Positions 4,252 through 46,962 of a DNA stretch of 64,000 nt are shown here, in pieces. The position numbers and the translations under genes are program-made. Numbering within the stretch: position 1 is the first letter of the stretch; the number at the start of each line of letters is the position of its first letter. This DNA is from a virus. Lineage: Duplodnaviria > Heunggongvirae > Uroviricota > Caudoviricetes. The notes under the pieces were generated by a model, which worked only from the letters and a program-made list of their open reading frames with translations, was not told the origin of the DNA and ran no database searches. The stretch lies in the IMG/VR virus record IMGVR_UViG_2880389630_000005; one strand, written 5' to 3'.

Positions 4252-4329
4252 ATGAGCAGAATTATCACCACCACCGTGTATACACTGCATGAGCTATCCT
4301 CCACCGCACAGGAAAAAGCCCGCGACTGG
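4252..4329 (+). pseudogene. 5' fragment of an island gene (~205 aa when restored) disrupted by the Mu-like prophage
   Basis: ATG 4252 with RBS aaggg; frame continues exactly into 40148-40718 when the prophage and one repeat copy are removed. Confidence 0.7.
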
Positions 4330-4490
4330 TGTGGGGTAGTGATCAATTCTGGGCGGAGTTAGTGCAGCCTGGTAGAACCAGCAAGCCTTGTGTGGCGCGG
4401 GGTGTGGTGATTTAGTGTGATTCTGGGCGGATTTGTGAGAAATGACCAAAAACGCTTTTTTTGCGCTTTTTTCTGGGCGCTTTTGATCTG
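4330..4490 (+). repeat. Prophage left end with three direct copies of TTCTGGGCG (candidate transposase-binding sites)
   Basis: TTCTGGGCGG at 4347 and 4421, TTCTGGGCGC at 4471; same motif inverted at right end. Confidence 0.55.
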
Positions 4491-4640: not shown

Positions 4641-5288
4641 TTATGCTGATTTCTTGTTTACAGGCTTAGTTTCTTGCTCCGGTGTGACGGGAACGCGATC
4701 ACCTGGTGTTCCAGCACAGAAAATAGCTTTGGCGCGGCGCAAAATCTCTTTGTCATTTTCCTCATCGCCAGCTAATGCCATGCAAACAGCGTCTTTAAGC
4801 GATTGCCTGATGTTCAGGCTTTGAATGGCCTTCCTTTGTTCCTCAAGTTCGCTATCGGCTTGCTTGGTTTGCCTGGTGGGTTGCTGTAGGCGTTCCAGGA
4901 CTCCTTTGATGCCAATACAACACAGCATATCAATAAGACGCTCTCTATCTTCTGGAGTAGCTCGCCTTAGTATTTCATCGACAATACTTGTGTTTGGGCG
5001 GTTAACGTCTTCTGTAGGCACCTTTTTTTCTATTATTGGATCATGCCTGCTCTCACCGTAGACCAACCATTCCAGTGATACATTCTCTAATTTTGCTATC
5101 GTAGCGACCACATTTAGGCCGGGAGTGGTGCCTTTCTCAAAGTAGTTATTTATGGTCGAGTACGGCAACCCCCAGTCTGAGGTGGCTTTACGCAGACTCC
5201 TAGTGCCAACCAGTTGCTTGATTCTGTCCTGAATGCTTTCTTTTCTATTCTGAGAAAAGGAAAAATCATCGGCGGTTTGTTTACTCAT
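4641..5288 (-). CDS. Prophage repressor (Mu c-like position), HTH DNA-binding
   Basis: 215 aa from ATG 5288 with RBS gaggaa; divergent from ner; N-terminal HTH-like segment. Confidence 0.7.
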   Translation of the reverse strand: MSKQTADDFSFSQNRKESIQDRIKQLVGTRSLRKATSDWGLPYSTINNYFEKGTTPGLNVVATIAKLENVSLEWLVYGESRHDPIIEKKVPTEDVNRPNTSIVDEILRRATPEDRERLIDMLCCIGIKGVLERLQQPTRQTKQADSELEEQRKAIQSLNIRQSLKDAVCMALAGDEENDKEILRRAKAIFCAGTPGDRVPVTPEQETKPVNKKSA

Positions 5289-5407
5289 TTTCTTTCCTCG
5301 CAATCTATTGATTTACAATGTATTTCTGCAAAAAGACTTTCTTTTCACCAAAGAAAGAAAAGAAAGCTTGTAATTTTCTATTTGTGGATCAATACTTATA
5401 TCCGAAG

Positions 5408-5456: not shown

Positions 5457-5693
5457 ATGATGGTTAGAAATGAAGTAATGAACAAAGACTGGCACCGCGA
5501 GTACATCGTTGCCGCTGTGCACACCAAAGGTTTTACATTGCGTGAACTTTCTGAACGCGCTGGTCTAAAAAAAGACTCTTTAAAAAATGCACTGTATCGC
5601 TCATGCCCTAAATATGAACGCATCATAGCCGATGCTATTGGTGTGGAACCTGCGGAGATCTGGCCAAGCCGGTATGCCAGTAAGGCGGCTTAA
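5457..5693 (+). CDS. ner: Ner-like DNA-binding protein
   Basis: 78 aa; resembles Mu Ner (…KDWHREYI…EIWPSRY…); immediately upstream of transposase. Confidence 0.8.
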   Translation: MMVRNEVMNKDWHREYIVAAVHTKGFTLRELSERAGLKKDSLKNALYRSCPKYERIIADAIGVEPAEIWPSRYASKAA

Positions 5694-7735
5694 TGTTTTA
5701 TTCAGCCAATGAGCTGGCCGGTCTTCCTGGTTTGCCCGGTACAGTTCAGGGGGTGCGCTGGACGCTCAATCGGATCACAGAGACGCACCCGGAATGGAAG
5801 CGCAAGCGTGAAGGCACCAAAGCATTCGAGTATCACATCGACTGCCTGCCCGCTGAAGCGCAGAAAGTTTTACGTAAGCGCCTGACCCATCAGGTCCTGG
5901 AAGATACGCAACTGCCCGCCGTGGTTGAGCAGAAGGCAGTTAAAAACGTCGCCGTTCGCGATGAACTGGAGGTGATGGTCAAATGCCCGGAACTGGCATT
6001 ACGCGAAGTCCAGGCACTGACTGACAAGCAAAAGGCCATCGCTGATGCGCGGATATTGCTGGCTACTGAAGTGCATAAACTGCGCGAATACGCCGGAATG
6101 ACCAGGAAGGCCGCGTTAAAGCACATCGTTGATGGTGTGCGCATGGGGGCGTTACCTGACCGCATTATCGAAGCAGCGAATACTGCAAATGCACGTCAGG
6201 GAAAGCGAACCGGTGTCAGCACCGGCAGCCTGGATAGCTGGTACTCCAGCTGGGTGATGGCGCGCGGTGATGCCAATCAGTTACTGGCGTTACTGGCTCC
6301 CGGTCATCATAAGGGAACACCGTGGGAGCAGGTCTGGTGGTTGAGCGATTTCTTTATGTTCTATCGCTCATGGAAGCGCCCGACCGTTGAATACGCGTAT
6401 CGCGAGTTTTCAGCCTGGTGGCATGAAAAACACGCGAATGATGCGGGAATGCTGGCAGTACTGCCTTCAGTTCACGCAGTCAGACGGGTGTTAAGCAGCG
6501 TCCCGGTGATTGTTAAAGAGCGTTTCCGCTCCACCGGTTCAGCCTGGCGTTCGCTCAATCCCTTTGTGCGGCGCGACTGGAGCACATTACCGGTTAATGC
6601 GGTATGGGTCGGGGATGGTCACTGTATGAAAATGACCGCGTTTAACCCACTGACCGGCAATATTTTCCGGCCAGAAGTGACGCTGGTTATGGATGCGGGT
6701 CAACGCTTTGTTGTGGGCTGGTCACTGTCCCTGTCGGAGAACGTGATAGCCGTTGCTGATGCGTTACGTTACGGCATGGCGCAGCACGGGATACCGCTGA
6801 TTTATTACTCCGATAACGGGGGCGGCGAAAAAAACCGGGTGCTTGACGCCGATATTACCGGGATTTTGCCCCGGCTGGGTGTGGAGCATCACACGGGGAT
6901 ACCAGGTAACCCACAGGGGCGCGGGGTGATTGAAAGGCTTAACAAGGAAATTCCCCGGGATGTGGCCCTGAGTTTCCAGACGTACTGCTCAAAGGGAGCA
7001 GACAAGGAAACCGTAATGATGCAGCAACGGATTATGCAGTCAGCCATTAAGGCCACCCACAAAGGGAAAGAACTGACAAAACGGCAGGTTAAGGCGAGGG
7101 ATGAAGTCCCCACCTTTGAGCAACTGATGGCAGCCATAGAACTGGAAGTCAGACGCTATAACAACCGGCCACACAGCAGCCTTCCTCGCAAAGAGGATGG
7201 CGAGCATTACAGCCCGGCAGCGTATCGCCGGAAACTGATAAAAGAGCAGAATGTTGAAATTGATTTCTTGTCGCCGGAAGAACTGCATGAAATGTTCAGA
7301 CCGGAGGTGACGCGCAAAACATTTCGCGGGGAAATTCAGTTATTCAACAATATTTATTACTCGTATGAGCTGGCCGCAGAGCACGGGAATGAAGTCAGGG
7401 TCAGTTACGATATTCATGATGCAAACAGCGTCATTGTCCGGCGGGCTGATGGCTCTTATATCTGCGATGCCATCTGGAACGGTAACAAGGTTGATGCCTT
7501 CGCTAAACCAGTTATCGAGCAAAAACTGGAGAAACGCGTCAGAGGCCGCATTGCACGGGCCACGCAGAAAATCGAAGAGGCTAAACGCGAGCTTACCCCG
7601 GCTATTACGCAGAAGCCTGACTTTAATCTGGGATATGGACTGGAACGCCCGGAGAAAAAGGAAAAAGAAGAACTTTATTTATTCGCATCTGAACGCGAAC
7701 GCAATTTAAAGAAAAACGGCACAAACAACCGTTAA
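5693..7735 (+). CDS. Mu A-like DDE transposase
   Basis: 680 aa; start overlaps ner stop (TAATG); size and position as Mu A. Confidence 0.9.
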   Translation: MFYSANELAGLPGLPGTVQGVRWTLNRITETHPEWKRKREGTKAFEYHIDCLPAEAQKVLRKRLTHQVLEDTQLPAVVEQKAVKNVAVRDELEVMVKCPELALREVQALTDKQKAIADARILLATEVHKLREYAGMTRKAALKHIVDGVRMGALPDRIIEAANTANARQGKRTGVSTGSLDSWYSSWVMARGDANQLLALLAPGHHKGTPWEQVWWLSDFFMFYRSWKRPTVEYAYREFSAWWHEKHANDAGMLAVLPSVHAVRRVLSSVPVIVKERFRSTGSAWRSLNPFVRRDWSTLPVNAVWVGDGHCMKMTAFNPLTGNIFRPEVTLVMDAGQRFVVGWSLSLSENVIAVADALRYGMAQHGIPLIYYSDNGGGEKNRVLDADITGILPRLGVEHHTGIPGNPQGRGVIERLNKEIPRDVALSFQTYCSKGADKETVMMQQRIMQSAIKATHKGKELTKRQVKARDEVPTFEQLMAAIELEVRRYNNRPHSSLPRKEDGEHYSPAAYRRKLIKEQNVEIDFLSPEELHEMFRPEVTRKTFRGEIQLFNNIYYSYELAAEHGNEVRVSYDIHDANSVIVRRADGSYICDAIWNGNKVDAFAKPVIEQKLEKRVRGRIARATQKIEEAKRELTPAITQKPDFNLGYGLERPEKKEKEELYLFASERERNLKKNGTNNR

Positions 7736-7753: not shown

Positions 7754-8647
7754 ATGAGTTTAATTACGCAATTAAATGACGTAATGGCCCGTCGCGGCTA
7801 TACGCAGACCCACGTCGCCCGTGCCATTGGTCGTAGCAGCGCCGTTATCAGCCAGTATTTACAGGGTAAATATCAGGGCGATATGGCTGATATTGAAGAA
7901 CGCATTTCTACCTTTGTGACCCGTGAGCGGGAAAAGGAAAACAGCCGCCGTATTAAAGCAAAGTTTGTGACCACCGGTATGGCTGCCAAAGGACTGGAGG
8001 TGCTGGCCTACGCTCACCTGGAATGTGAAATCTGTGTGCTGTATGGCGCAGCAGGTCTTGGCAAAACAATGATTCTGCGTGAATACGCCGCCAGAAACCG
8101 GGATGCGCTCCTGATTGAGGCTGACCCGGGCTATACAGCCAGAACACTGCTTGAGGAGTTGTGCCGCCAGCTGGGGGTAAAGGTTCGCGGCAACATTCAC
8201 GAACTGATAGATGCCTGTGTGCGCGAACTGCGTGATTCCGGTCGTCTGCTAATGGTGGACGAGGCTGAACTGCTCCCCTATCGCGCACTGGAGGTTCTGC
8301 GCCGTCTGCATGACAAAGCGGGTATCGGGGTTGTTCTGGCGGGTATGCCTCGTCTTCTGATTAACCTCAAGGGGCGTCGTGGTGAGTTCGCCCAGTTATA
8401 CAGCCGTGTGGCGCTGGCGCTTAACCTGGGCGATACGCTGGCGCAGGAAGATTTTAACCAGATAGCCACCGGGCTGATGCCGGAAGCAGCAGAACCGGAA
8501 ATCAGCGAGGCGCTTTATACACGTTCGCTGGGTAATGCCCGCCGCCTGTTCAAACTGGCGCGTGGTGTGTACCGGATTTGTGATATCAGCGATGCGCCGG
8601 TCAGTGTGCAGGCCATTGATAAATTCGCGGAAATGTTAATTCACTGA
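7754..8647 (+). CDS. Mu B-like AAA+ transposition/target-DNA activator
   Basis: 297 aa; Walker A GAAGLGKT; follows transposase. Confidence 0.9.
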   Translation: MSLITQLNDVMARRGYTQTHVARAIGRSSAVISQYLQGKYQGDMADIEERISTFVTREREKENSRRIKAKFVTTGMAAKGLEVLAYAHLECEICVLYGAAGLGKTMILREYAARNRDALLIEADPGYTARTLLEELCRQLGVKVRGNIHELIDACVRELRDSGRLLMVDEAELLPYRALEVLRRLHDKAGIGVVLAGMPRLLINLKGRRGEFAQLYSRVALALNLGDTLAQEDFNQIATGLMPEAAEPEISEALYTRSLGNARRLFKLARGVYRICDISDAPVSVQAIDKFAEMLIH

Positions 8648-20131: not shown

Positions 20132-21727
20132 ATGGCACAGCTTGTTGATATTTACGGACGCCCGCTGAAACGTGAGGCACTCAAAACAACGCAGTCGGTC
20201 AGAGTGGCGGAACGACTGCGCATCTATCCCGATCACCCGTCCCGTGGTCTGAACATCAGAAAACTGCCGCGTATTCTGGAAGCAGCCGAACGCGGTTATC
20301 TTCCGGCGCAGGCGATGCTGTTTGCGGATATGGAAGAACGTGATGGCCATCTGTTCGCCGAGATGGAAAAGCGCAAAAAAGCGTTGCTGACGCTGGACTG
20401 GTCGGTGGAGCCGCCCCGCAATGCCTCGAAGGCAGAAAAGGAGCTGGCCGCCGCCGTGGATGAATGGCTGCACGGCATCCCGGACATGGAGGACATCATC
20501 CTCAACGGGATGAGCGGTGTCGGTTACGGCTTCAGCTGTCAGGAAATCAGCTGGGCGTTCGTGGATAAAACATGGTTACCGGATGCGGTGACGCTGCGCC
20601 CGCATAACTGGTTCATAACTCTGCCGGAACACAATGACGAACTCCGGCTGGATGACGGCAACCGTGGGGAAGACGGTAAGGACGGTTCCGCATTGTGGCC
20701 GTTCGGCTGGCTGGTTCACCGTTACAACGCCCGGTCGGGGTTCCTGGGTTCATCCGGCCTGTTCCGCGTACTGGTCTGGCCGTATCTGTTTAAAAACTTC
20801 GCGCTGCGTGATATGGCGGAATTTCTGGAGATTTACGGTCTTCCAGCGCGCATTGCGTACTATGCACAGGGCACCAGTGACGCGGACCGGGACAACATTC
20901 TTGAGGCGCTGGTCAATCTGGGGCATGAAGCGGTGGCAGCCCTGCCGCAGGGTAACGAAATCGAGTTCAAGGAAGCCGCATCCGGCGGACCGGAGGCATT
21001 CATGTCGATGGTGGAATGGGCGGAGCGTACCACCTCAAAAGTGATTCTGGGCAGTACGCTGACCAGCCAGGCCGACGGTAAAACCTCCACCAACGCACTG
21101 GGTAATGTCCATAACGAGGTCCGGCACGACATTCTGACCGCTGATGCACGCCAGCTGTCCGGCATGTTCAGCAGTCTGATACAGATGATGGCCAGTCTCA
21201 ACGGCTGGCAGGATATCCCGTCACGCCGTCTTCCGCGACTGGTGTTTGATGTGCAGCAGGAAGCCGACATTAAGGGCGTGGCGGAAGCCGTCAGCGTGCT
21301 GCTCAACAATGTGGGGATGAAGGATATCCCGGCGTCGTGGGTACGCAAAAAAACCGGTATCCCCACCCCGAAAGACGGCGAAGAGGTACTGGTGCCGGTG
21401 GCACAGCGTCTCCCTGTGCAGGCGGGCCTCAGCCAGTTGCGTGAGCGGCTGAATGTCGTCGCACTCAGTCAGCAGGACAACGGGGAGGACGACCCGGCAC
21501 AGAACGCCATCGACCGGGCAGAGCTTCCGGCAGAGGCCATCGCGCAGGGGATGAACGAACTGGTGGCCCCACTGGTGCAGGCCATACAGGAAGGCCGGGA
21601 TGCAGACGAGGCTATGAACGTACTGGCGGAAGCGTGGCCGGAGCTGCCGGATGAAACGCTGCGGCAGTTGCTGACACAGGCATTCTTTGTGGCGGATATC
21701 TGGGGGCGACTGAATGCCGACAGCTGA
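20132..21727 (+). CDS. Portal protein (Mu gp29-like)
   Basis: 531 aa; follows terminase; Mu portal-like. Confidence 0.9.
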   Translation: MAQLVDIYGRPLKREALKTTQSVRVAERLRIYPDHPSRGLNIRKLPRILEAAERGYLPAQAMLFADMEERDGHLFAEMEKRKKALLTLDWSVEPPRNASKAEKELAAAVDEWLHGIPDMEDIILNGMSGVGYGFSCQEISWAFVDKTWLPDAVTLRPHNWFITLPEHNDELRLDDGNRGEDGKDGSALWPFGWLVHRYNARSGFLGSSGLFRVLVWPYLFKNFALRDMAEFLEIYGLPARIAYYAQGTSDADRDNILEALVNLGHEAVAALPQGNEIEFKEAASGGPEAFMSMVEWAERTTSKVILGSTLTSQADGKTSTNALGNVHNEVRHDILTADARQLSGMFSSLIQMMASLNGWQDIPSRRLPRLVFDVQQEADIKGVAEAVSVLLNNVGMKDIPASWVRKKTGIPTPKDGEEVLVPVAQRLPVQAGLSQLRERLNVVALSQQDNGEDDPAQNAIDRAELPAEAIAQGMNELVAPLVQAIQEGRDADEAMNVLAEAWPELPDETLRQLLTQAFFVADIWGRLNADS

Positions 21728-36994: not shown

Positions 36995-37567
36995 ATGAAT
37001 ACGGTTGATTTATTTCGTGCCATGTTACCACCGGTCAGCTATGACCCGAACGGGAAATATATTTCAACAGAACTGAACGCAGAAGCAGCCATTATGGATG
37101 AAGTAAAAGCGTCAGCTGCACGAGTGCTTGCATCTGTCACACCATTTTACGCATCCATGACACTGTCTGACTGGGAACGAGTGTATGAAGTAATACCCCG
37201 CGATGGTGCCACACAGCAGGAACGCCGAGAAAATATTCTTATAAAGATGGCTGCAACTGGTGGGTTATCTATCCCTTATTTTAAACAACTTGCAGCCAGC
37301 CTCGGGTACACCATAACAATTACTGAACTCCATCCATTTAGAACGGGGGTAAACCGATGTGGTGATCGTCTCTATATAACAGATGCCCGATGGATTTGGC
37401 AGGTTAATGTCACAGGAAGCAAAACGCCAGCTTACAGATTCAGAACCGGAGTATCTGCTGCCGGGGAACCGTTACTTTCCTTTGGTGCCCCTGTACTGGA
37501 AGAAACATTTAAAGAGCTTAAACCCGCTTTTACTTATTGCCATTTCACATATAAGGAGGAGCAGTAA
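36995..37567 (+). CDS. Tail protein (Mu gp48-like)
   Basis: 190 aa; position. Confidence 0.75.
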
Positions 37568-39945
37568 TGCAAAATCTGATGCCCCCGATAAATACACCGG
37601 ATCAATTGTTTCATGATGGTGACCCCACTCAGGGGATAGAAGGAACCATCGTAACTGCTGATTATTTAAACAATCAGCAGGGGGCAATCCGTGATTTACA
37701 GCAGGAACTCCTTAATGTTCTTGGTAGTGTACATATTCAACCTGCCCCCCAAAAAACGGATCAGCTACTTACCGCGCTTCGTGCGCTGCTGTTAAGCCGC
37801 AAGAATCCGTTTGGCGATATCAAATCGGATGGCACGGTAGAACGCGCTCTTGAAAATCTGGGGTTACAGGATGTAAAAGCTGGTTCATTGAACAATCTGT
37901 ACACTAACCATTCCCGTAGTGTCTTAATGGAATTGCCGTTATTATTCCCGGACTACGATACGGTGCTGGCTGCTCAGTCTGGTGCGGAATATATGTATCC
38001 ACAGGGATTTGTGGTGACAGGAGAAAAAATCTATCTGAGTTATACCGTTGAGCCAAAGCAGACACGGAACGTTATAGTTCAGTACACAACATCCGGCGAA
38101 TATGAGGGATATTATTATGTCGATAATGGAGGTCGTGGCGTTGTCAGCGAAGGCCTTGTGGTGACAACGGATTACGGTGGATTACGTTTGTTCATGTCAG
38201 GAGAAAATGGATTACTGAAACAGTTTTCGCTTGATGGGGCAATTTCTGGTTCAGTATTGCCGTTAATTGATGAACATGATGTCGGTGTTTACAACCAGTT
38301 CAGCTATCGTAAAAACCGCTGGGTGGTTGAACAGTCAGCGCCGGAAGTGGGAGGCCTGATCACCCGCACAGTATTTGCGGTGTATGATTTTCAGTTTCGT
38401 CGGACAGGGACATTCACATTACCGTTGCATGATTCCGGATATATCACGGAAAGCACAGACAGCTATGCAAGACGCTTCACAAAACGTCAGGGAATTGCTG
38501 TGGGAGACGATTATATTGCCTGTTCTTATGGTGGCTATTTTAATACCGGGGCATCAGCCGGATTTAACCAGTTTCAGGGGGTTAAGGTCTTTTCTCCGGA
38601 TGGAGTAAAGCAGCAGGAATCCATTCTTCATCCCCAAAAAATGATAGATGTGCTTACCAGGCAGGGTTTTACACCTTCGCGCATTGAGAACGAAGGAATT
38701 TGTATTTCTGACGACGGCGGCAGTATATATTCGCTTTATATCTTTCTGGAGCGTGGGTTACCACAGGCTTATCAGAAAGGAATTGTTCTGATGAAAGAGT
38801 TCAGTACTGGCAGAGATGCTATTGATTTTCGTCAGGCAGCCTGGTTGTACACGGGGTTTGATGTGTCTCATGCCAGTATTGGAACATTTCCCCGTAGTGC
38901 CCAGGGGTTGGTAAACCCGGTGTTGGGGACGGTATTCACATCCCTGTCTGAAATTCTGGCATATATGCGTTCTGTGAGTCAGAAATGGTTTTGTCTGCAT
39001 ACAACCACGACACCGATTAAAGATCTGAGTGGAAATGACATTCCTGCTGACAATTATGTGTTCATCAAGAATGCTAATAACCAGACATTCTATATAACGC
39101 AGGAGTCAGCTGAAGGTGGAATAAAATATAAAGCTGTCACTACAGACAGCGGAGAATATGGTTTTCAGCGACAAAGAGAGGCAATCTGGTCCAATGTTAT
39201 CACCATCGCACAAAAGAGCGATGGTGAGGATCAGTTTAATCGTATTATCGCTGCCTCGAAAAGTGGTTCGGGTAAAAATCAGGATAAAATACTGGTAGTT
39301 GACCAACAGGCATCAGAGGGGAATAACACGCTGGTAATTGGCGGTGGTTCATCTGTGTTCAGGTCAGCGACAGTGATTGATTTTGCAACGAATCAGGATG
39401 CAAATGCCACAGGAGGAGAAAAGAGATGGCGCATAGATTCATCAGGAAATCTCCGCCCTTATACAGATAATACGTATTCGATCGGTTATGCCTCATGGCG
39501 ACCCGCACAGGTTTATTCAGCTACGGGAAGTATCAGTACATCAGACCGGACTCATAAACAGGACGAAACAATTCTGTCGGATGCAGAAAAAAGGGTTGCC
39601 AGAAAGCTGCTCGGGTATATCTGTCGGTTCCGTTTCAGGGATGCAGTGTCCAGCAAAGGGAACGCAGCCAGATGGCATGTAGGAGTGATTGCTCAGGACG
39701 TACAGAAGGTCTTCTCCGAGGAAGGGCTGGACGCTTTTGATTACGGTATTTTGTGTCGTGATGAATATCCGGCGGAATATGAAGTGGTTTACGGGACTCG
39801 TATGGAGCTTGGTTCTGACGGACTCCTTACAATGGAAGAATACGATACCGGAGAGCGCAAGCTGGTCAGGGAGGCTGGTGAAATAATGTCTGTAAGGAAT
39901 GATGAGCTGCATTATTTCATGCTGGCATCGCTGTCTGGCCAGTGA
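37567..39945 (+). CDS. Tail fibre protein with C-terminal intramolecular chaperone (peptidase S74-like) domain
   Basis: 792 aa; C-terminal SDRTHKQDE...[11 protein letters not shown] matches the self-cleaving chaperone signature; last gene before prophage right end. Confidence 0.8.
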
Positions 39946-40060
39946 ATAATATTAATGTAAGGAGCGATATAAGCTCCTTACATCATGCATTTTATGCTGC
40001 GATTATGCGTTCTCCTGTTGTTTGTTGCTGAGAGTGAAACACCGGAAACATAACTAATAA

Positions 40061-40147
40061 GTTAGCGCCCAATTCTGGGCTTTTTGGCTGAGATCTCCCC
40101 GCCCAGAATTGGGCGCTAATTAGCCCAGAAAAAAACGCGAAGTTACA
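40061..40147 (+). repeat. Prophage right end: 19-bp inverted repeat TTAGCGCCCAATTCTGGGC/GCCCAGAATTGGGCGCTAA plus inverted TTCTGGGC motif copies
   Basis: Perfect inverted repeat at 40061-40080 and 40101-40119; CCCAGAA at 40123-40130. Confidence 0.55.
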
Positions 40148-40718
40148 CTGGTACCGTCAGCATCATGCTGACAGCAACTGGTATGAAAACGTGTATGAGG
40201 ACTTCAGGGCGGTCTGTGGCATTTTCGGAATTGACCTCCGCCAGCGCGTTTTCCGGCTCAGCAACGGCAGGTTTATGGAAGAGGCGTGCATCTGGTTCAG
40301 CGGATTCTGCAGCCAGGGGGACGGAGCCTGTTTTGAAGGACGCTGGCACTGGCAGCCAGCAACAGCCAGAAGGCTCCGGGAGTATGCCACACAGGACCAT
40401 GAACTCCATCGTATCGCGGATGCCCTGCAGGCGGTGCAGAAACGTAACTTCTGGCAACTGCAGGCTGAAATCCACCACCGGGGACGTTACTGCCATCCGT
40501 ACAGCATGGATATCACTGTTACCCGGAACAGTCCGACTGGTCAGGCTATGACAGCCGATGCGGAAGCCGCTGTCAGCGAAGCCCTGCGCGACCTGGCCTT
40601 CTGGTTGTACCGTCAGCTGGAAAACGAGTACGACAGGCTGACCTCTGATGCCGCTGTGGATGAGGCCCTTCTCATCAACGAATACACCTTCACCGAAGCC
40701 GGTCTGCGCGCCGGCTGA
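40148..40718 (+). pseudogene. 3' fragment of the island gene disrupted by the Mu-like prophage
   Basis: Frame of 40191-40718 extends upstream to the junction and joins 4252-4329 in frame; stop TGA at 40716-40718. Confidence 0.7.
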
Positions 40719-40733
40719 CCTGAGGACTTTATC

Positions 40734-41102
40734 GTGTCAGACAAACTCCATGAGACAAATTATCCCGACGACCATAACGACCGCCTCTGGTGGGGACTGC
40801 CCTGCACCGTGACGCCCTGTTTCGGGGCACGTCTGGTGCAGGAGGGTAACCGGTTGCATTACCTTGCCGACCGCGCCGGTATCAGAGGCCTGTTCAGCGA
40901 TGCAGATGCGTACCACCTGGACCAGGCCTTTCCGCTGCTGATGAAACAACTGGAACTCATGCTCACCAGCGGTGAACTGAATCCCCGCCATCAGCATACC
41001 GTCACGCTGTATGCAAAAGGGCTGACCTGCAAAGCCGATACCCTCAGCAGTTGTGGTTACGTTTATCTGGCTGTTTATCCGACGCCCGAAATGAAAAATT
41101 AA
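40734..41102 (+). CDS. cbeA: Type IV antitoxin CbeA (YeeU)
   Basis: 122 aa; GTG start; near-identical to K-12 YeeU from memory (…WWGLPCTVTPCFGARLVQEGNRLHYLADRAG…). Confidence 0.9.
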   Translation: MSDKLHETNYPDDHNDRLWWGLPCTVTPCFGARLVQEGNRLHYLADRAGIRGLFSDADAYHLDQAFPLLMKQLELMLTSGELNPRHQHTVTLYAKGLTCKADTLSSCGYVYLAVYPTPEMKN

Positions 41103-41190
41103 CTCTCCAGAATAGCCTTCTGCTACGGCCTGGTGTTTTCACCACGCCACTTTTCCATTTTTATATCTGCATATCAGGAAAATCTTCAGT

Positions 41191-41565
41191 ATGAAAACAT
41201 TACCTGTATTACCCGGGCAGGCGGCCAGTTCTCGCCCGTCTCCTGTTGAAATCTGGCAGATACTGCTGTCCCGACTGCTGGACCAGCACTATGGCCTCAC
41301 ACTGAATGACACACCGTTTGCCGATGAACGTGTGATTGAGCAGCATATTGAGGCAGGCATTTCACTGTGTGATGCGGTGAACTTTCTCGTGGAAAAATAC
41401 GCGCTGGTGCGTACCGACCAGCCGGGATTCAGCGCCTGTACCCGCTCTCAGTTAATAAACAGCATCGATATCCTCCGGGCTCGCAGGGCGACCGGCCTGA
41501 TGACCAGCGACAATTACAGAACGGTAAATAACATTACCCTGGGTAAGTATCCGGAGGCGAAATGA
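41191..41565 (+). CDS. cbtA: Type IV toxin CbtA (YeeV)
   Basis: 124 aa; MKTLPVLPGQAASSRPSPVEIWQILLSRLL... matches YeeV from memory. Confidence 0.9.
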   Translation: MKTLPVLPGQAASSRPSPVEIWQILLSRLLDQHYGLTLNDTPFADERVIEQHIEAGISLCDAVNFLVEKYALVRTDQPGFSACTRSQLINSIDILRARRATGLMTSDNYRTVNNITLGKYPEAK

Positions 41566-42196: not shown

Positions 42197-42553
42197 ATGG
42201 CAGGAGTTCGTCAACACGGTTGGAGGGCCATTCCGGCAGTATGCTCAGAATATGGCGCAGATACGCTTCCGGATCGATACCGTTCAGACGGCAGGTGCCT
42301 GCTTTTCCGGCAACAAGCAGGAATCTCAGCGCTGAAGCAGGAATTAGAGGTAAAAACGCCCTACCGGGCCATGAATCACCCGGTCATTGGAGTAGTAACC
42401 AAAGCAGATTTAGCCAGCATGGAACAAATATCTTTGGTGACAAGTTGGTTACGGGAAGCTGGAGCGCACAACGTGTTAGTAACCAGTGCAGTTAATAACA
42501 ATGGAGTTACAGAACTTTTTGCCTTGCTGCATACAGAAGAAGGCTGTTGTTAA
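42197..42553 (+). pseudogene. yoeF: YoeF-like remnant (C-terminal fragment of a P-loop GTPase-like protein)
   Basis: 118-aa ORF with no convincing start; position matches the K-12 yoeF pseudogene (from memory). Confidence 0.35.
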
Positions 42554-42653
42554 TTTCGATTGGTTCTCAGATGAGAATGATGACGGTGATACACAGATAA
42601 GAATCAATGAGCAATGAGGGTTGCCGGGCAACCCTCATTGAATAAAACGGGAA

Positions 42654-43154: not shown

Positions 43155-44213
43155 TTATTTGCGCAAGGCCCGGCAAATCAGATTCGATAGCAACTCAAGC
43201 TGATGTGCCGTTTCCATGTTCAGCCACACATAACCATAGATTGGTGTTTCCAAGACTTTCAGGTCATGGTGGTTATCGAGCAACTGACGCAGCTCTTCCA
43301 CAGCATCGTTCAATTTTTCCGTATTGGCAAAAACCGGCTGCGGATTACCTTCGTACAGCGCATGAACAAGGCTCAGCAGTATTTGCTGCATCATGTGCTG
43401 GGTATCACGAAGTTTTTGCGCGTTCAATAACACGAAATGGCTGGGGCGCGTGGCCCAGTATGCATTGATTTGCAACTCCAGCATACAAACCAGATTGCGA
43501 TTAATGGTCTGGATACCTTCATATATCGATTTGGGAATACGGGTTTCTTTGCTGGCGGGCGCAATCAGCCCACGCATTTTCACGGCATCGGTCAGGAGTT
43601 TTTGTAGATGGCTTTCCAGACGTGGGCGTTCGAGTAAGTTCGGTGAGAATGCAGATTGATAGACCCGATTATACTCGGTCAGACTTTTCGCCAGTTGAAT
43701 GCGCCAGTGGATGAACGCCCGTTGTGGCCAGATACCGGTAAACAACATTGCCAGTAAAGAGCCGAGGATCACATCGCCGCTTCGCCATAACGCCGTATCA
43801 ATTTCACCTGTCGGGGAACCCACAACAATTGCCAGCGTCACCCCAATCAATAATCCTTGATACGGTTTCTTGCCCAGCGCCAGCCAACCGCAAAGAAACA
43901 TCGCCGCCGCGCACCAGACTAACATCAGCGGTAACGAAATTAACTCCAGTTGCAGAGCGATAAGACCTAAAATCGAACCCAACACCGTACCGCCAATACG
44001 TTCGAAGGCACGAGGGACAACGTTCCCCCAGAACGAGATTGGCCCCATAATCACCACCATGGTGACCAGCGGCCAGGTGCTTTCCGGGATAGTAAACAGG
44101 CGGATAATGAGAAAAGTGAGCAGGAATGCCAGCGCGACCCGAGTACCATGCACAATGCGGTAATGGCGGTATACCCGGATTTCAAACGGGCTTAATGACT
44201 TATCGGCACGCAC
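43155..44213 (-). CDS. yeeA: FUSC-family inner membrane protein YeeA
   Basis: 352 aa from GTG 44213; multiple TM segments; matches K-12 YeeA. Confidence 0.85.
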   Translation of the reverse strand: MRADKSLSPFEIRVYRHYRIVHGTRVALAFLLTFLIIRLFTIPESTWPLVTMVVIMGPISFWGNVVPRAFERIGGTVLGSILGLIALQLELISLPLMLVWCAAAMFLCGWLALGKKPYQGLLIGVTLAIVVGSPTGEIDTALWRSGDVILGSLLAMLFTGIWPQRAFIHWRIQLAKSLTEYNRVYQSAFSPNLLERPRLESHLQKLLTDAVKMRGLIAPASKETRIPKSIYEGIQTINRNLVCMLELQINAYWATRPSHFVLLNAQKLRDTQHMMQQILLSLVHALYEGNPQPVFANTEKLNDAVEELRQLLDNHHDLKVLETPIYGYVWLNMETAHQLELLSNLICRALRK

Positions 44214-44410
44214 GCAGAAACTCCGTAATGAAGATGAAAAGCGCTCATAACACATCTGTCGGCCAGAAGGCGCGCCTCTGAGTTATCCGACGGACATACC
44301 GGGAACAGTGTAATTTCCCGGCAGGAGCGAAAAATTTGAAAGGCGCATCTTACTCTTTTCGCTTTCAAAAAAAGAGTGGTCTTCGCGTTAACACACCGCC
44401 CTGAGATGAA

Positions 44411-44884
44411 TTAGTGATGTTTTGGCTGCACCGCAACATACATTTCGATATCCCAGTACCCATCTTCCGCGCCATTGTTCAAGTAAACCTCGAAGCAGGG
44501 CTTTGGTAACATTTCATAAGCACTGTCCTGCAAGAGGCTATTAAAGAACTGATACCAGGGTTTAGCAAAATCATCACCGACTACACGAGCCACCGCCACC
44601 GCATACTGACCACCTGAAATTTCTGTCAGAATGACGCCCTCACTGTTTTCGGGGAGCGTAAAGTTATTCGGTACCGTCACGACGGTGTCGCAGCGTAATT
44701 TTTCGGCGGGTGTTTCATCTGGATTGTCGTAATAGACAGCAACCCACTCCTTCGGCACAATATTTTTGCTATCTATCCACATCATCAACTGCTCAAAACC
44801 TTTCTTTACCATCTGCTCCCACGGGCCAACAAGATGGAAACCTGCAACGGTACGTTTATCTTCCTGCTTAATCTCGTAGTTCAT
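44411..44884 (-). CDS. sbmC: DNA gyrase inhibitor SbmC (GyrI)
   Basis: 157 aa; [24 protein letters not shown]... matches SbmC. Confidence 0.9.
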
Positions 44885-44899
44885 GACGCCTCCACTAAC

Positions 44900-44919
44900 A
44901 CTGTTTTTATATACAGTAT
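44900..44919. promoter_or_regulatory. LexA (SOS) box upstream of sbmC
   Basis: ACTGTTTTTATATACAGTAT fits the CTGT-N8-ACAG consensus; sbmC is SOS-inducible. Confidence 0.75.
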
Positions 44920-45002
44920 AGTTGCAATATTAAAACCACAAGGAATGAGTGTTGATTATGCGAGCAGACTCGCACTCCTGCCAGTCTGCTGCAAAAGAAA
45001 GG

Positions 45003-46175
45003 TCAGGCCTTATGGTGGAAATAATCACTCAGGCGGGAAAACATGCTGCCTTCCCCGACAGATTCCAGGGTAACCAGCGGCCAGTGCGCCACCTGTTTAT
45101 CACGGTCGTAAAGTTCAATTTCCCCTACCCGCTGATGGGCGCTAATTGGCGCGGTGAGTTCTTTACCATCAAGGGTATATTTGGCTTTGATATGTGGAAT
45201 TTCGGCTTTCGGTAGCACCATCCAGAACTCTTGTTCCGTTCCCAGGGCGATATTTTCTTTATCACCATACCAGATGCGTTCCGTACCGACCTTTTTCCCA
45301 CGGTGCAAAATTTGCACCGTAGTAAAGTTTTGTTGCCCCCAACGCAGTAATTTTCTTGCCTCTTCCTCACGACCTTTTGCGCTGTCAGCCCCCATTACCA
45401 CTGCAATGAGGCGACGCTGCCCGTCTACAGCCGAAGCAATAAGATTAAACCCGGCACCAGAAGTATGGCCCGTTTTCAGGCCGTCAACATTCATGGTTTT
45501 ATCCCACAATAACCCGTTACGGTTTTGCTGGGTGATACCGTTCCAGGTGAGGCTTTTCTCACTGTACATATGATAAAACTCGGGCTCGCCGTGGATGATA
45601 GCGCGAGAAAGCACGGCTAAATCATAAGCCGAGCTATGCTGGCCAGGTGCATCCAGACCATGCACTGTTTCAAAATGCGTATCCTTGAGATGCAGCTTCT
45701 CGGCATAGTTGTTCATCATTTCAACAAACTGCCGTTGCCCACCGGCAATATAGTCAGCCAGAGCAACACAAGCGTCATTTCCGGAATCCACAATTAAACC
45801 ACGGCTTAAATCACGTACCGATACGCGATCGCCCTCTTTCAAAAACATCAGTGAAGAACCGACAAACACCGGATTATCTTTCGCCCACGCATCACGCCCC
45901 ACGGTGACAATATCGTCTGGCGTAATGCGATGACTATCGATAGCGCGATCCACGACATAGCCCGTCATCAGCTTTGTCAGGCTGGCGGGATTGCGCTGTT
46001 GATGCTCATTACCCGCGGTGAGAATCTGACCGGTGGTGTAATCCATCAATACCCAGGACCCGGCATGAATCTCTGGAGGCTGAGGTGAAAAAGGAATGTT
46101 TTCCGCCGCAAAACCAGACGATAAATTAAAAACGAACAAAGAAGCAGCAATAATAAGACGGCGTTTCAACAGCAA
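45003..46175 (-). CDS. dacD: D-alanyl-D-alanine carboxypeptidase DacD (PBP6b)
   Basis: ~388-390 aa; signal peptide; matches DacD from memory. Confidence 0.9.
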   Translation of the reverse strand: MLLKRRLIIAASLFVFNLSSGFAAENIPFSPQPPEIHAGSWVLMDYTTGQILTAGNEHQQRNPASLTKLMTGYVVDRAIDSHRITPDDIVTVGRDAWAKDNPVFVGSSLMFLKEGDRVSVRDLSRGLIVDSGNDACVALADYIAGGQRQFVEMMNNYAEKLHLKDTHFETVHGLDAPGQHSSAYDLAVLSRAIIHGEPEFYHMYSEKSLTWNGITQQNRNGLLWDKTMNVDGLKTGHTSGAGFNLIASAVDGQRRLIAVVMGADSAKGREEEARKLLRWGQQNFTTVQILHRGKKVGTERIWYGDKENIALGTEQEFWMVLPKAEIPHIKAKYTLDGKELTAPISAHQRVGEIELYDRDKQVAHWPLVTLESVGEGSMFSRLSDYFHHKA

Positions 46176-46377
46176 ACCCTCAGGTGTTTCAAATAGCTGT
46201 TCTTTTTACGGAAATACTTATGAACTGGCTGGAATAAAGTGCAAGAAAATGTGACTACTATCTCATTTTTATCTGACATGATCTGTTGCCACTCGCTGCC
46301 AAATTGTCGCGCTAAAGCTGATTAGCACGGTGATATTTGATACTCTGGCAGACAGCAGAAATAACGGATTTAACCTA

Positions 46378-46425
46378 ATGATGAATGACGGTAAGCAACA
46401 ATCTACCTTTTTGTTTCACGATTAC
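46378..46425 (+). pseudogene. sbcB: sbcB (exonuclease I) 5' stump, truncated by P22-like prophage insertion
   Basis: Encodes MMNDGKQQSTFLFHDY (SbcB N-terminus from memory), then diverges and stops at 46438-46440. Confidence 0.8.
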
Positions 46426-46962
46426 GCGCAACACCCCTGAGAACCGCCATGAACAAGGGTTTCATGATTTGTGATTTTAGTTTGGTACGCAATTTGGTAC
46501 ACAACACAATTTTCACTTCAGCGGGTAGTCATCAAACTCACCATAACGAGCATCGTTGATGATGTATGTGATCACCACAAATATCACATCTGGACTAGTT
46601 CCGTCTTCATGCGCAGGTATTTGTTCACGCCTCCCTTTCTGCAAATCCTAAAGATGAGATTTTGGGGTTTTGGGATATCTTTTTATCCTCAGTTCTCTAT
46701 CCATTCTACAAAGCAGTAATGAACCATCACCGTGTGATAGTGAGGCATCCGCTACGTTAAGCGCAGAGAAATGATGCAGTGGTGGTCGGACTGGATTGAT
46801 GAAAAGGTGTAGCAACCAACATTGCTATATCTCAGATAGCACAAAGCCTTGCAATCCAGTGCAAAGCTTTGTGTGTCTCAGTTTTTATAAATTCTTAAGC
46901 AAGAATTATAGTTATAACTATTATGTAAATTTTATGATATATATTGTATTTAAATGCTGGTT

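Follow-up and report, generated by a model that had tools for sequence, protein, structure and literature searches.

The window, i.e., the whole 64-kb stretch of DNA that was analyzed, has three mobile elements packed into it: a Mu-type prophage, a CP4-44-like island, and a P22-like prophage. The Mu-type prophage is inserted in a hypothetical ORF that lies between yeeT and cbeA of the CP4-44-like island. Its boundaries, the genes that bear on the present analysis, and the short direct repeats that flank it are as follows:

4326 to 4329, no strand, left copy of the target-site duplication, CTGG
4330 to 40147, + strand, Mu-type transposable prophage of ~35.8 kb with the termini 5′-TGT...ACA-3′ (from the BLAST split, the empty site, and junction comparison)
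4641 to 5303, − strand, CI-type repressor, reading leftward and adjoining the left end as in Mu (Pfam Phage_CI_repr)
5693 to 7735, + strand, Mu-type DDE transposase of 680 aa, the presumed site-binding protein (Pfam Mu-transpos_C 6e-17, HTH_Tnp_Mu_1 1.7e-10, and rve)
7754 to 8647, + strand, MuB-like AAA+ ATPase of 297 aa (Pfam AAA_22 and TniB)
37567 to 39945, + strand, tail-fiber gene of 792 aa with an S74 chaperone domain, final gene of the prophage
39955 to 39983, no strand, terminator-like hairpin with an 11-bp stem, directly after the tail-fiber stop codon
40148 to 40151, no strand, right copy of the target-site duplication, CTGG

A Ner-like HTH protein (Pfam HTH_35) is also encoded near the left end, while baseplate J, Mu Gp48, and tail-fiber domains are recognized by Pfam near the right end. 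The transposase gives a weak direct match to the catalytic core of MuA (1BCO/4FCY, E ~4e-4). A few kilobases downstream of the CP4-44-like island, the P22-like prophage lies in the region 44000–64000 of the window, with a tailspike, gp10, and a P22-type capsid protein; a sar antisense RNA is present in this region at 50157–50224 (97 bits).

The right boundary was located by megablast of positions 39000–41200 against 5,426 complete E. coli genomes. The matches split at 40147/40148, with the left half matching the prophage end that carries the tail-fiber gene and the right half matching the CP4-44-like island, which continues beyond the junction with a hypothetical gene, cbeA, and cbtA. The end itself is invariant (...GTTACA), with flanks that differ at about a dozen independent insertions, so that the feature under study does lie just inside the right end of a prophage, as the preliminary description of this DNA had placed it. 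The two halves joined together (prophage and yeeT–cbeA intergenic ORF) are found in none of the 5,426 complete genomes, near-identical copies of the prophage being present in cirA and elsewhere among E. coli genomes; this particular insertion appears to be recent or strain-specific. The empty site, which is available from the island of strain SK1144 (L001), reads gcgaCTGGtaccg. In the window, the left junction consists of ...gcgaCTGG followed by the element sequence TGTGGGGTAG..., which starts at 4330, and the right junction of ...GAAGTTACA, ending at 40147, followed by CTGGtaccg. The base that precedes GTGGGG at the left end is T at 13 of 14 independent left junctions.

The element family is present in 59 of the 5,426 complete E. 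coli genomes (~1%), including EPEC E2348/69. Its insertions are found in the CP4-44-like island ORF, cirA, eutC (in EPEC E2348/69), phnJ, hyfB, and an HTH gene belonging to a dusA element, as well as in other prophages. Occupancy of so many different sites is the signature of transposition and not of site-specific integration; the prophage at 4330–40147 is a Mu-type transposable phage.

Eight insertions, including that of the window, offer both junctions for comparison (the others being L025+L002, L030, L031, L034+L035, L037+L018, L041+L013, and L038+L015). A 4-bp duplication with TG...CA termini fits all eight, and the duplicated bases are:

Window, CTGG
S13, in cirA, CATT
E2348/69, in eutC, CACT
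CP082831, ACTT
IMG genome 2734482772, CATG
IMG genome 2778261064, CACG
IMG genome 2718217859, CTTG
L031, AATC, with a variant terminal base

The empty site predicted for S13, with a single CATT, is identical to intact cirA over 305 of 305 bases. Models with a 5-bp duplication were also considered, and each single model of this kind fails at one or more of the eight paired junctions. The family thus appears to make 4-bp target duplications, in contrast to Mu, which makes duplications of 5 bp. The literature searched yielded no Mu-like phage with a reported 4-bp duplication, which is weak evidence, and nothing relevant to the E2348/69 prophage either.

Close to the right terminus, an inverted-repeat search of the window identifies two arms of 19 nt that are complementary at 19 of 19 positions and lie 20 nt apart, 28–85 bp inside position 40147. 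The parts of this repeat, labeled R3 and R2 for reasons given below, are as follows:

40062 to 40080, + strand, R3, left arm of the inverted repeat, TTAGCGCCCAATTCTGGGC, a complete candidate site in the orientation opposite to R1 and R2
40081 to 40100, no strand, R3–R2 spacer of 20 bp, invariant in length and variable in sequence among nine right-end variants
40101 to 40119, − strand, R2, right arm of the inverted repeat, GCCCAGAATTGGGCGCTAA, a complete candidate site oriented like R1

The perfect 19-bp inverted repeat announced in the preliminary description is therefore real. Its right arm (40101–40119) and gap of ~20 bp had been placed correctly, and its left arm starts one base later than the 40061 given there. 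In the lineage of the window, the spacer contains an 8-bp palindrome, GAGATCTC, at 40090–40097, a BglII site that includes a GATC for Dam. The element of SCAID, a close relative, has GAGCTCTC in its place; thus the spacer palindrome is not conserved.

Among perfect inverted repeats of the 64-kb window with a spacer of at most 60 nt, this one is the longest. The runner-up, at 42612–42640 downstream of the cbtA/yeeW region, has arms of 14 nt (CAATGAGGGTTGCC) separated by a single nucleotide. The longest arms in 40 dinucleotide-preserving shuffles of the window measure 9–13 nt, and the analytic expectation for arms of at least 19 nt is ~1.4e-5 per window. A chance palindrome, for which the palindromic form alone speaks, is hardly credible against these figures, and the same verdict extends to a dispersed element of the REP, BIME, or MITE kind. 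BLAST of 40062–40147 against the 5,426 E. coli genomes returns only right ends of this family or one type of decayed relic locus, and the dispersed repeat was rejected on this basis; the probability left to chance or dispersal together is close to nil.

What the arms are is suggested by a short motif that they share with other positions near the ends of the prophage. The 8-mer TTCTGGGC, which the preliminary description had noticed in both arms, is indeed present in each and occurs nine times in the window, where 2.2 copies are expected. Six of these copies are no farther than 150 bp from a prophage terminus (P ~9e-13), and the only copy internal to the prophage is at 21045. The six terminal copies are the cores of the following candidate transposase sites:

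4330 to 4354, + strand, L1, terminal candidate site, TGTGGGGTAGTGATCAATTCTGGGC, core at 4347–4354, i.e., at offset 18–25 from the left terminus
4410 to 4428, + strand, L2, candidate site, core at 4421–4428
4460 to 4478, + strand, L3, candidate site, core at 4471–4478
40073, + strand, core of R3, inverted
40101, − strand, core of R2
40123 to 40147, − strand, R1, terminal candidate site, reading inward TGTAACTTCGCGTTTTTTTCTGGGC, core at 40123, i.e., at offset 18–25 from the right terminus

The offset of the core from the terminus is identical for L1 and R1. When the sites are aligned on their cores, five of the six carry T-n-G-Y-G at positions −10 to −6, and in L2 the same element is shifted by 2 nt. 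This shared upstream element indicates that the site is bipartite and ~19 bp long, with the form T-n-G-Y-G-N5-TTCTGGGC, and each 19-nt arm of the inverted repeat corresponds to exactly one whole bipartite site. At the right end, R1 and R2 are direct and adjacent and R3 is inverted, while at the left end L1 stands apart from L2 and L3. L1 is conserved in six other left ends as well as in seven left ends from IMG/VR.

On the strength of this layout, the inverted repeat is, with good confidence, taken to be R2 together with an inverted R3, i.e., the inner transposase-binding sites of the attR of a Mu-type prophage. The suggestion of paired transposase sites in the preliminary description gains support from the sequence in that the same ~19-bp site is present singly at R1, L1, L2, and L3 in a Mu-like arrangement. 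By analogy with Mu, the DDE transposase encoded at 5693–7735 would bind as monomers to the six bipartite sites. The terminal sites L1 and R1 would form the catalytic core of the transpososome with R2, and R3, along with L2 and L3, would be accessory and aid assembly of the synapse. Both the binding of the sites by the transposase and this division of labor among them are thus proposals modeled on Mu.

An inverted repeat could also serve as an operator through which a dimeric regulator, such as the repressor or Ner-like protein of the prophage or a host factor, governs use of the end or late-gene read-out. Dimeric DNA-binding proteins typically use inverted repeats, and the element encodes two HTH regulators. 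However, the motif is single and non-palindromic at L1, L2, L3, and R1, where it has the end-specific orientation and offset expected of a transposase site, and it is this single, end-oriented occurrence at four other positions that makes an operator unlikely. Moreover, the centers of the two arms are 39 bp apart, which is atypical of a simple dimeric operator, and the repressor/ner intergenic region contains no copy of the motif. An operator at this position is consequently considered very improbable.

Related right ends were gathered by BLAST and by an IMG/VR search whose probe, the R1 terminus alone, has no overlap with the repeat and recovered 12 right ends. From these E. coli genomes and IMG/VR contigs, nine distinct variants of the right end were aligned. 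Species-representative genomes scanned with the R1 terminus and with the three-core layout gave no matches and hence no relatives from other species. In the comparison with related elements, which the preliminary description had advocated, core, orientation, and spacing are kept in all of the right ends examined, contrary to the lack of conservation that it had named as grounds for refutation. All nine variants retain the orientation of the arms and an R3–R2 spacing of exactly 20 bp. The 11-bp core CAATTCTGGGC is invariant in R3 (9/9) and nearly so in R2, for which one variant has TTCCGGGC. T-11, T-10, and C-7 are invariant in both arms, while the other outer positions and the sequence of the spacer vary. 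Perfect 19/19 arms are confined to the lineage of the window (S13, R4, AVS0151, Ec55, SCAID, and the window itself), and in every other variant the arms deviate from perfect pairing at the same three positions.

These data also bear on the possibility that the repeat functions as a nucleic-acid hairpin, either in RNA, as a terminator or insulator at the prophage boundary, or in DNA, as a cruciform or hairpin that takes part in end processing. Folding by itself would be compatible with such a role. The RNA of 39946–40147 folds with z = −6.3 relative to shuffles and has a stem of 19–21 bp in its MFE structure, and the repeat of the window folds as DNA with −22.5 kcal/mol (z = −7.0). A terminator scan additionally places a small hairpin, GCCCA-ATTC-TGGGC followed by T5, in the left arm (40067–40085; GCCCAATTCTGGGC + T5, with a weak 5-bp stem), and a terminator near the end is plausible given that read-through transcription is reported to disturb the function of Mu ends (PMC3145075). 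Against this stands the behavior of the stem across relatives. Covariation for the 19-bp stem in the nine sequences is 0.076, equal to the shuffled mean of 0.076, and the column pairs 12/65, 16/61, and 17/60 are unpaired in seven, four, and seven of the nine sequences, respectively. The hairpin-forming element envisaged in the preliminary description is hence disfavored, with no compensatory change, three pairs broken in 4–7 of nine sequences, and perfect pairing specific to one lineage. As single-stranded DNA, seven relatives reach −12.5 to −18 kcal/mol, nearly all of it through the 11-bp core, which is also conserved in the unpaired single sites. Neither strand has a T-run after the 19-bp stem. 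The small internal hairpin lacks conservation among relatives (the L007 group is devoid of a T-run after R3), and the tail-fiber module possesses a terminator-like hairpin of its own, at 39955–39983. No Rfam family matches at the inverted repeat. On the basis of covariation in the nine variants, folding, and the terminator scan, a hairpin or terminator is disfavored as the main function and regarded as improbable. A pair of protein-binding sites, unlike a hairpin, would be expected to conserve sequence, orientation, and spacing but not pairing, as is the case here.

With the arms read as the binding sites R2 and R3, their perfect complementarity calls for a separate explanation. Imperfection at the same three positions in every other variant marks the perfect state as derived, and the three changes, which all increase complementarity, are suggestive of templated (quasipalindrome) correction, or of gene conversion, between the two arms. 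Template-switch mutagenesis, on which this suggestion draws, is an established process. Two inverted sites that were imperfect at first were thus probably made perfect by templated correction or gene conversion, and their perfection probably has no function in itself.

The inner limit of the conserved end can be traced from the modules that adjoin it. Elements with at least four different tail-fiber/downstream modules have DNA in common only from 0–9 bp before R3 to the terminus. The modules next to R3 are:

S74-chaperone fiber, in the window
Invertible-segment remnant with a truncated invertase, in L005
GH55 protein, in L007
DUF4376-type genes, in L010, L015, and L031

Since the common DNA starts only at R3, this site marks the inner limit of the cis-acting end that is retained; R3 is the innermost part of the end that recombination never takes away. 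In the window, the 3′ part of the tail-fiber gene and the 107 bp that follow it (39946–40052) are 100% identical to a module of an e14-like element (L006 4001–4107, in a ymfQ–stfP context), which is without the inverted repeat. Only ~10 bp separate the mosaic boundary with this e14-like element from the start of the left arm, and the hairpin at 39955–39983 is part of the tail-fiber module and not of the conserved Mu-type end.

Two kinds of remnants were observed in the vicinity of such ends. The first is a decayed right end of 86 bp (R3–spacer–R2–R1, with mutated cores) that follows a DUF4376 tail-fiber-assembly pseudogene at the ends of lambdoid prophages. Several hundred genomes of E. coli have it, O157:H7 and ATCC 11775 among them. 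Copies lie at:

L003, 4001–4087, near a truncated ompW
L004, 4001–4086, near a truncated ompW
L008, 2501–2568, near a truncated ompW
L010, 2501–2586, near prfC

By its sequence, this decayed end looks like a fossil Mu-like attR that was carried along with a tail-fiber module. The second is a region adjoining R3 in L005 (3885–3977) and L030 (5534–7146) with opposed tail-fiber and assembly genes and the truncated N-terminus of a serine invertase (MFIGYVRASTNDQ...). It is the remnant of a G-segment-like invertible region, which the element of the window does not have.

The ends of Mu, read directly from NC_000929, offer the closest frame for comparison. Going inward from the right terminus of Mu, R1 (...CACGAAAAAC) and R2 (...ATGCGAAAAC) are direct, and after a further 5 bp comes CTTTCGCGCTTCAAATGAAACAG. 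The latter is the reverse complement of the site, which means that the R3 of Mu is inverted and faces R2. The right end of the window prophage and the attR of Mu therefore share three sites per end, with R1 terminal, R2 adjacent and direct, and R3 inverted and facing R2. The left ends are likewise similar, with L1 at the terminus followed by a gap of ~70–100 bp and then L2 and L3 (~100 bp farther in for Mu), as are the TG...CA termini and the left-end gene order of repressor, ner, A, and B. The attR sites R1, R2, and R3 for MuA were described by Craigie, Mizuuchi & Mizuuchi 1984, as summarized in PMC3145075. According to the same source, MuA has three sites per end with differing spacings, of which L1, R1, and R2 constitute the core and R3 is the least important (PMC3145075).

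The differences from Mu concern the sites themselves and their geometry. Mu sites end in ...RCGAAAR, whereas those of the window prophage have the unrelated form T-n-G-Y-G-N5-TTCTGGGC and do not match the 22-bp consensus of MuA. The gap between R2 and R3 is 20 bp in the window prophage vs 5 bp in Mu, and R2 and R3 are imperfect copies in Mu but identical over 19 bp in the lineage of the window. With a transposase distant from MuA and a site that bears no relation to the consensus of MuA, the mechanism may differ in its details. The inverted repeat most likely belongs, as a normal component and not as a special hairpin, to a familiar kind of element, a Mu-type attR with a different site sequence.

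Similar arrays have been described in other Mu-like phages. Six putative transposase sites are reported for Mu, FluMu, Pnm1, and Sp18 (PMC2628397), and Pseudomonas Mu-like phages have L1–L3 and R1–R3, with one right-end site inverted and TGT termini (PMC4378225). FluMu, Pnm1, and Sp18 and the D3112/PaMx73/H70 group thus resemble the window prophage in having six predicted sites, three per end (PMC2628397, PMC4378225), and the D3112/PaMx73/H70 group also in the inversion of one right-end site and in the 5′-TGT termini (PMC4378225). All of these arrays, like that of the window, are predictions from sequence, and they differ from it in site sequences and spacings. Furthermore, the inverted site is reported to be R1 in the Pseudomonas group, while it is R3 in the window prophage. 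The most similar transposases from sequenced phages are those of Pseudomonas phage VW-6B (49% amino acid identity), Yersinia phage Tongde (46%), Klebsiella phage ST405-OXA48phi1.1 (45%), and SuMu (40%). These phages share the transposase clade and the Mu-like genome plan. The sequence deposited for Klebsiella ST405-OXA48phi1.1 starts and stops at CDS boundaries, and for SuMu inverted repeats close to the ends are listed with no site analysis (PMC3447690).

A divergent relative, L031, provides a further view of the site model. Its left-end sites (42380–42520) carry TTCTGGAC, TTCTGGAT, and ATCTGGAC, while its right-end sites (5545–5640) have TTCTGGGC in all three; left-end sites of the form TTCTGGAC/T are found in L028/L031 and L029. 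The first base of the L031 element is A and not T, and some of its genes are frameshifted. Co-variation of the left and right cores, which was expected in L031, is not seen there. The mismatch therefore lends no additional support to the model and slightly complicates its simple form. Variation at the last two positions of the core may be tolerated, these positions may not be read by the transposase, or the L031 element may be a recombinant, mosaic, or defective one.

The conspicuous palindrome is accordingly accounted for as a normal part of a transposable phage end and introduces no new category of biology. What is gained is a set of exact boundaries (4330–40147), six candidate cis sites, and a target duplication for an E. 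coli prophage family. Among the genes that this family disrupts are cirA, eutC, phnJ, and hyfB. The site model could serve in prophage annotation and in the design of mini-elements. The strict conservation of R3 in the family goes somewhat beyond what the analogy with Mu predicts, R3 being the least important of the Mu sites (PMC3145075), and this conservation and that of the spacing, along with the 4-bp duplication, suggest testable departures from the Mu paradigm.

Of these features, the 4-bp target duplication may be more novel than the repeat itself. If the perfect R2/R3 palindrome did originate as proposed, it would represent a natural case in which functional protein-binding sites underwent templated (quasipalindrome) correction. 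The broader proposal that this lineage of E. coli forms a branch of transposable phages with a mechanism of its own, marked by a transposase only remotely akin to MuA, a separate bipartite end code, a strictly conserved inverted R3 exactly 20 bp from R2, and a 4-bp stagger, is put forward tentatively, its probability being judged slightly below even. If correct, such a distinct branch would imply a transpososome geometry different from that of Mu.
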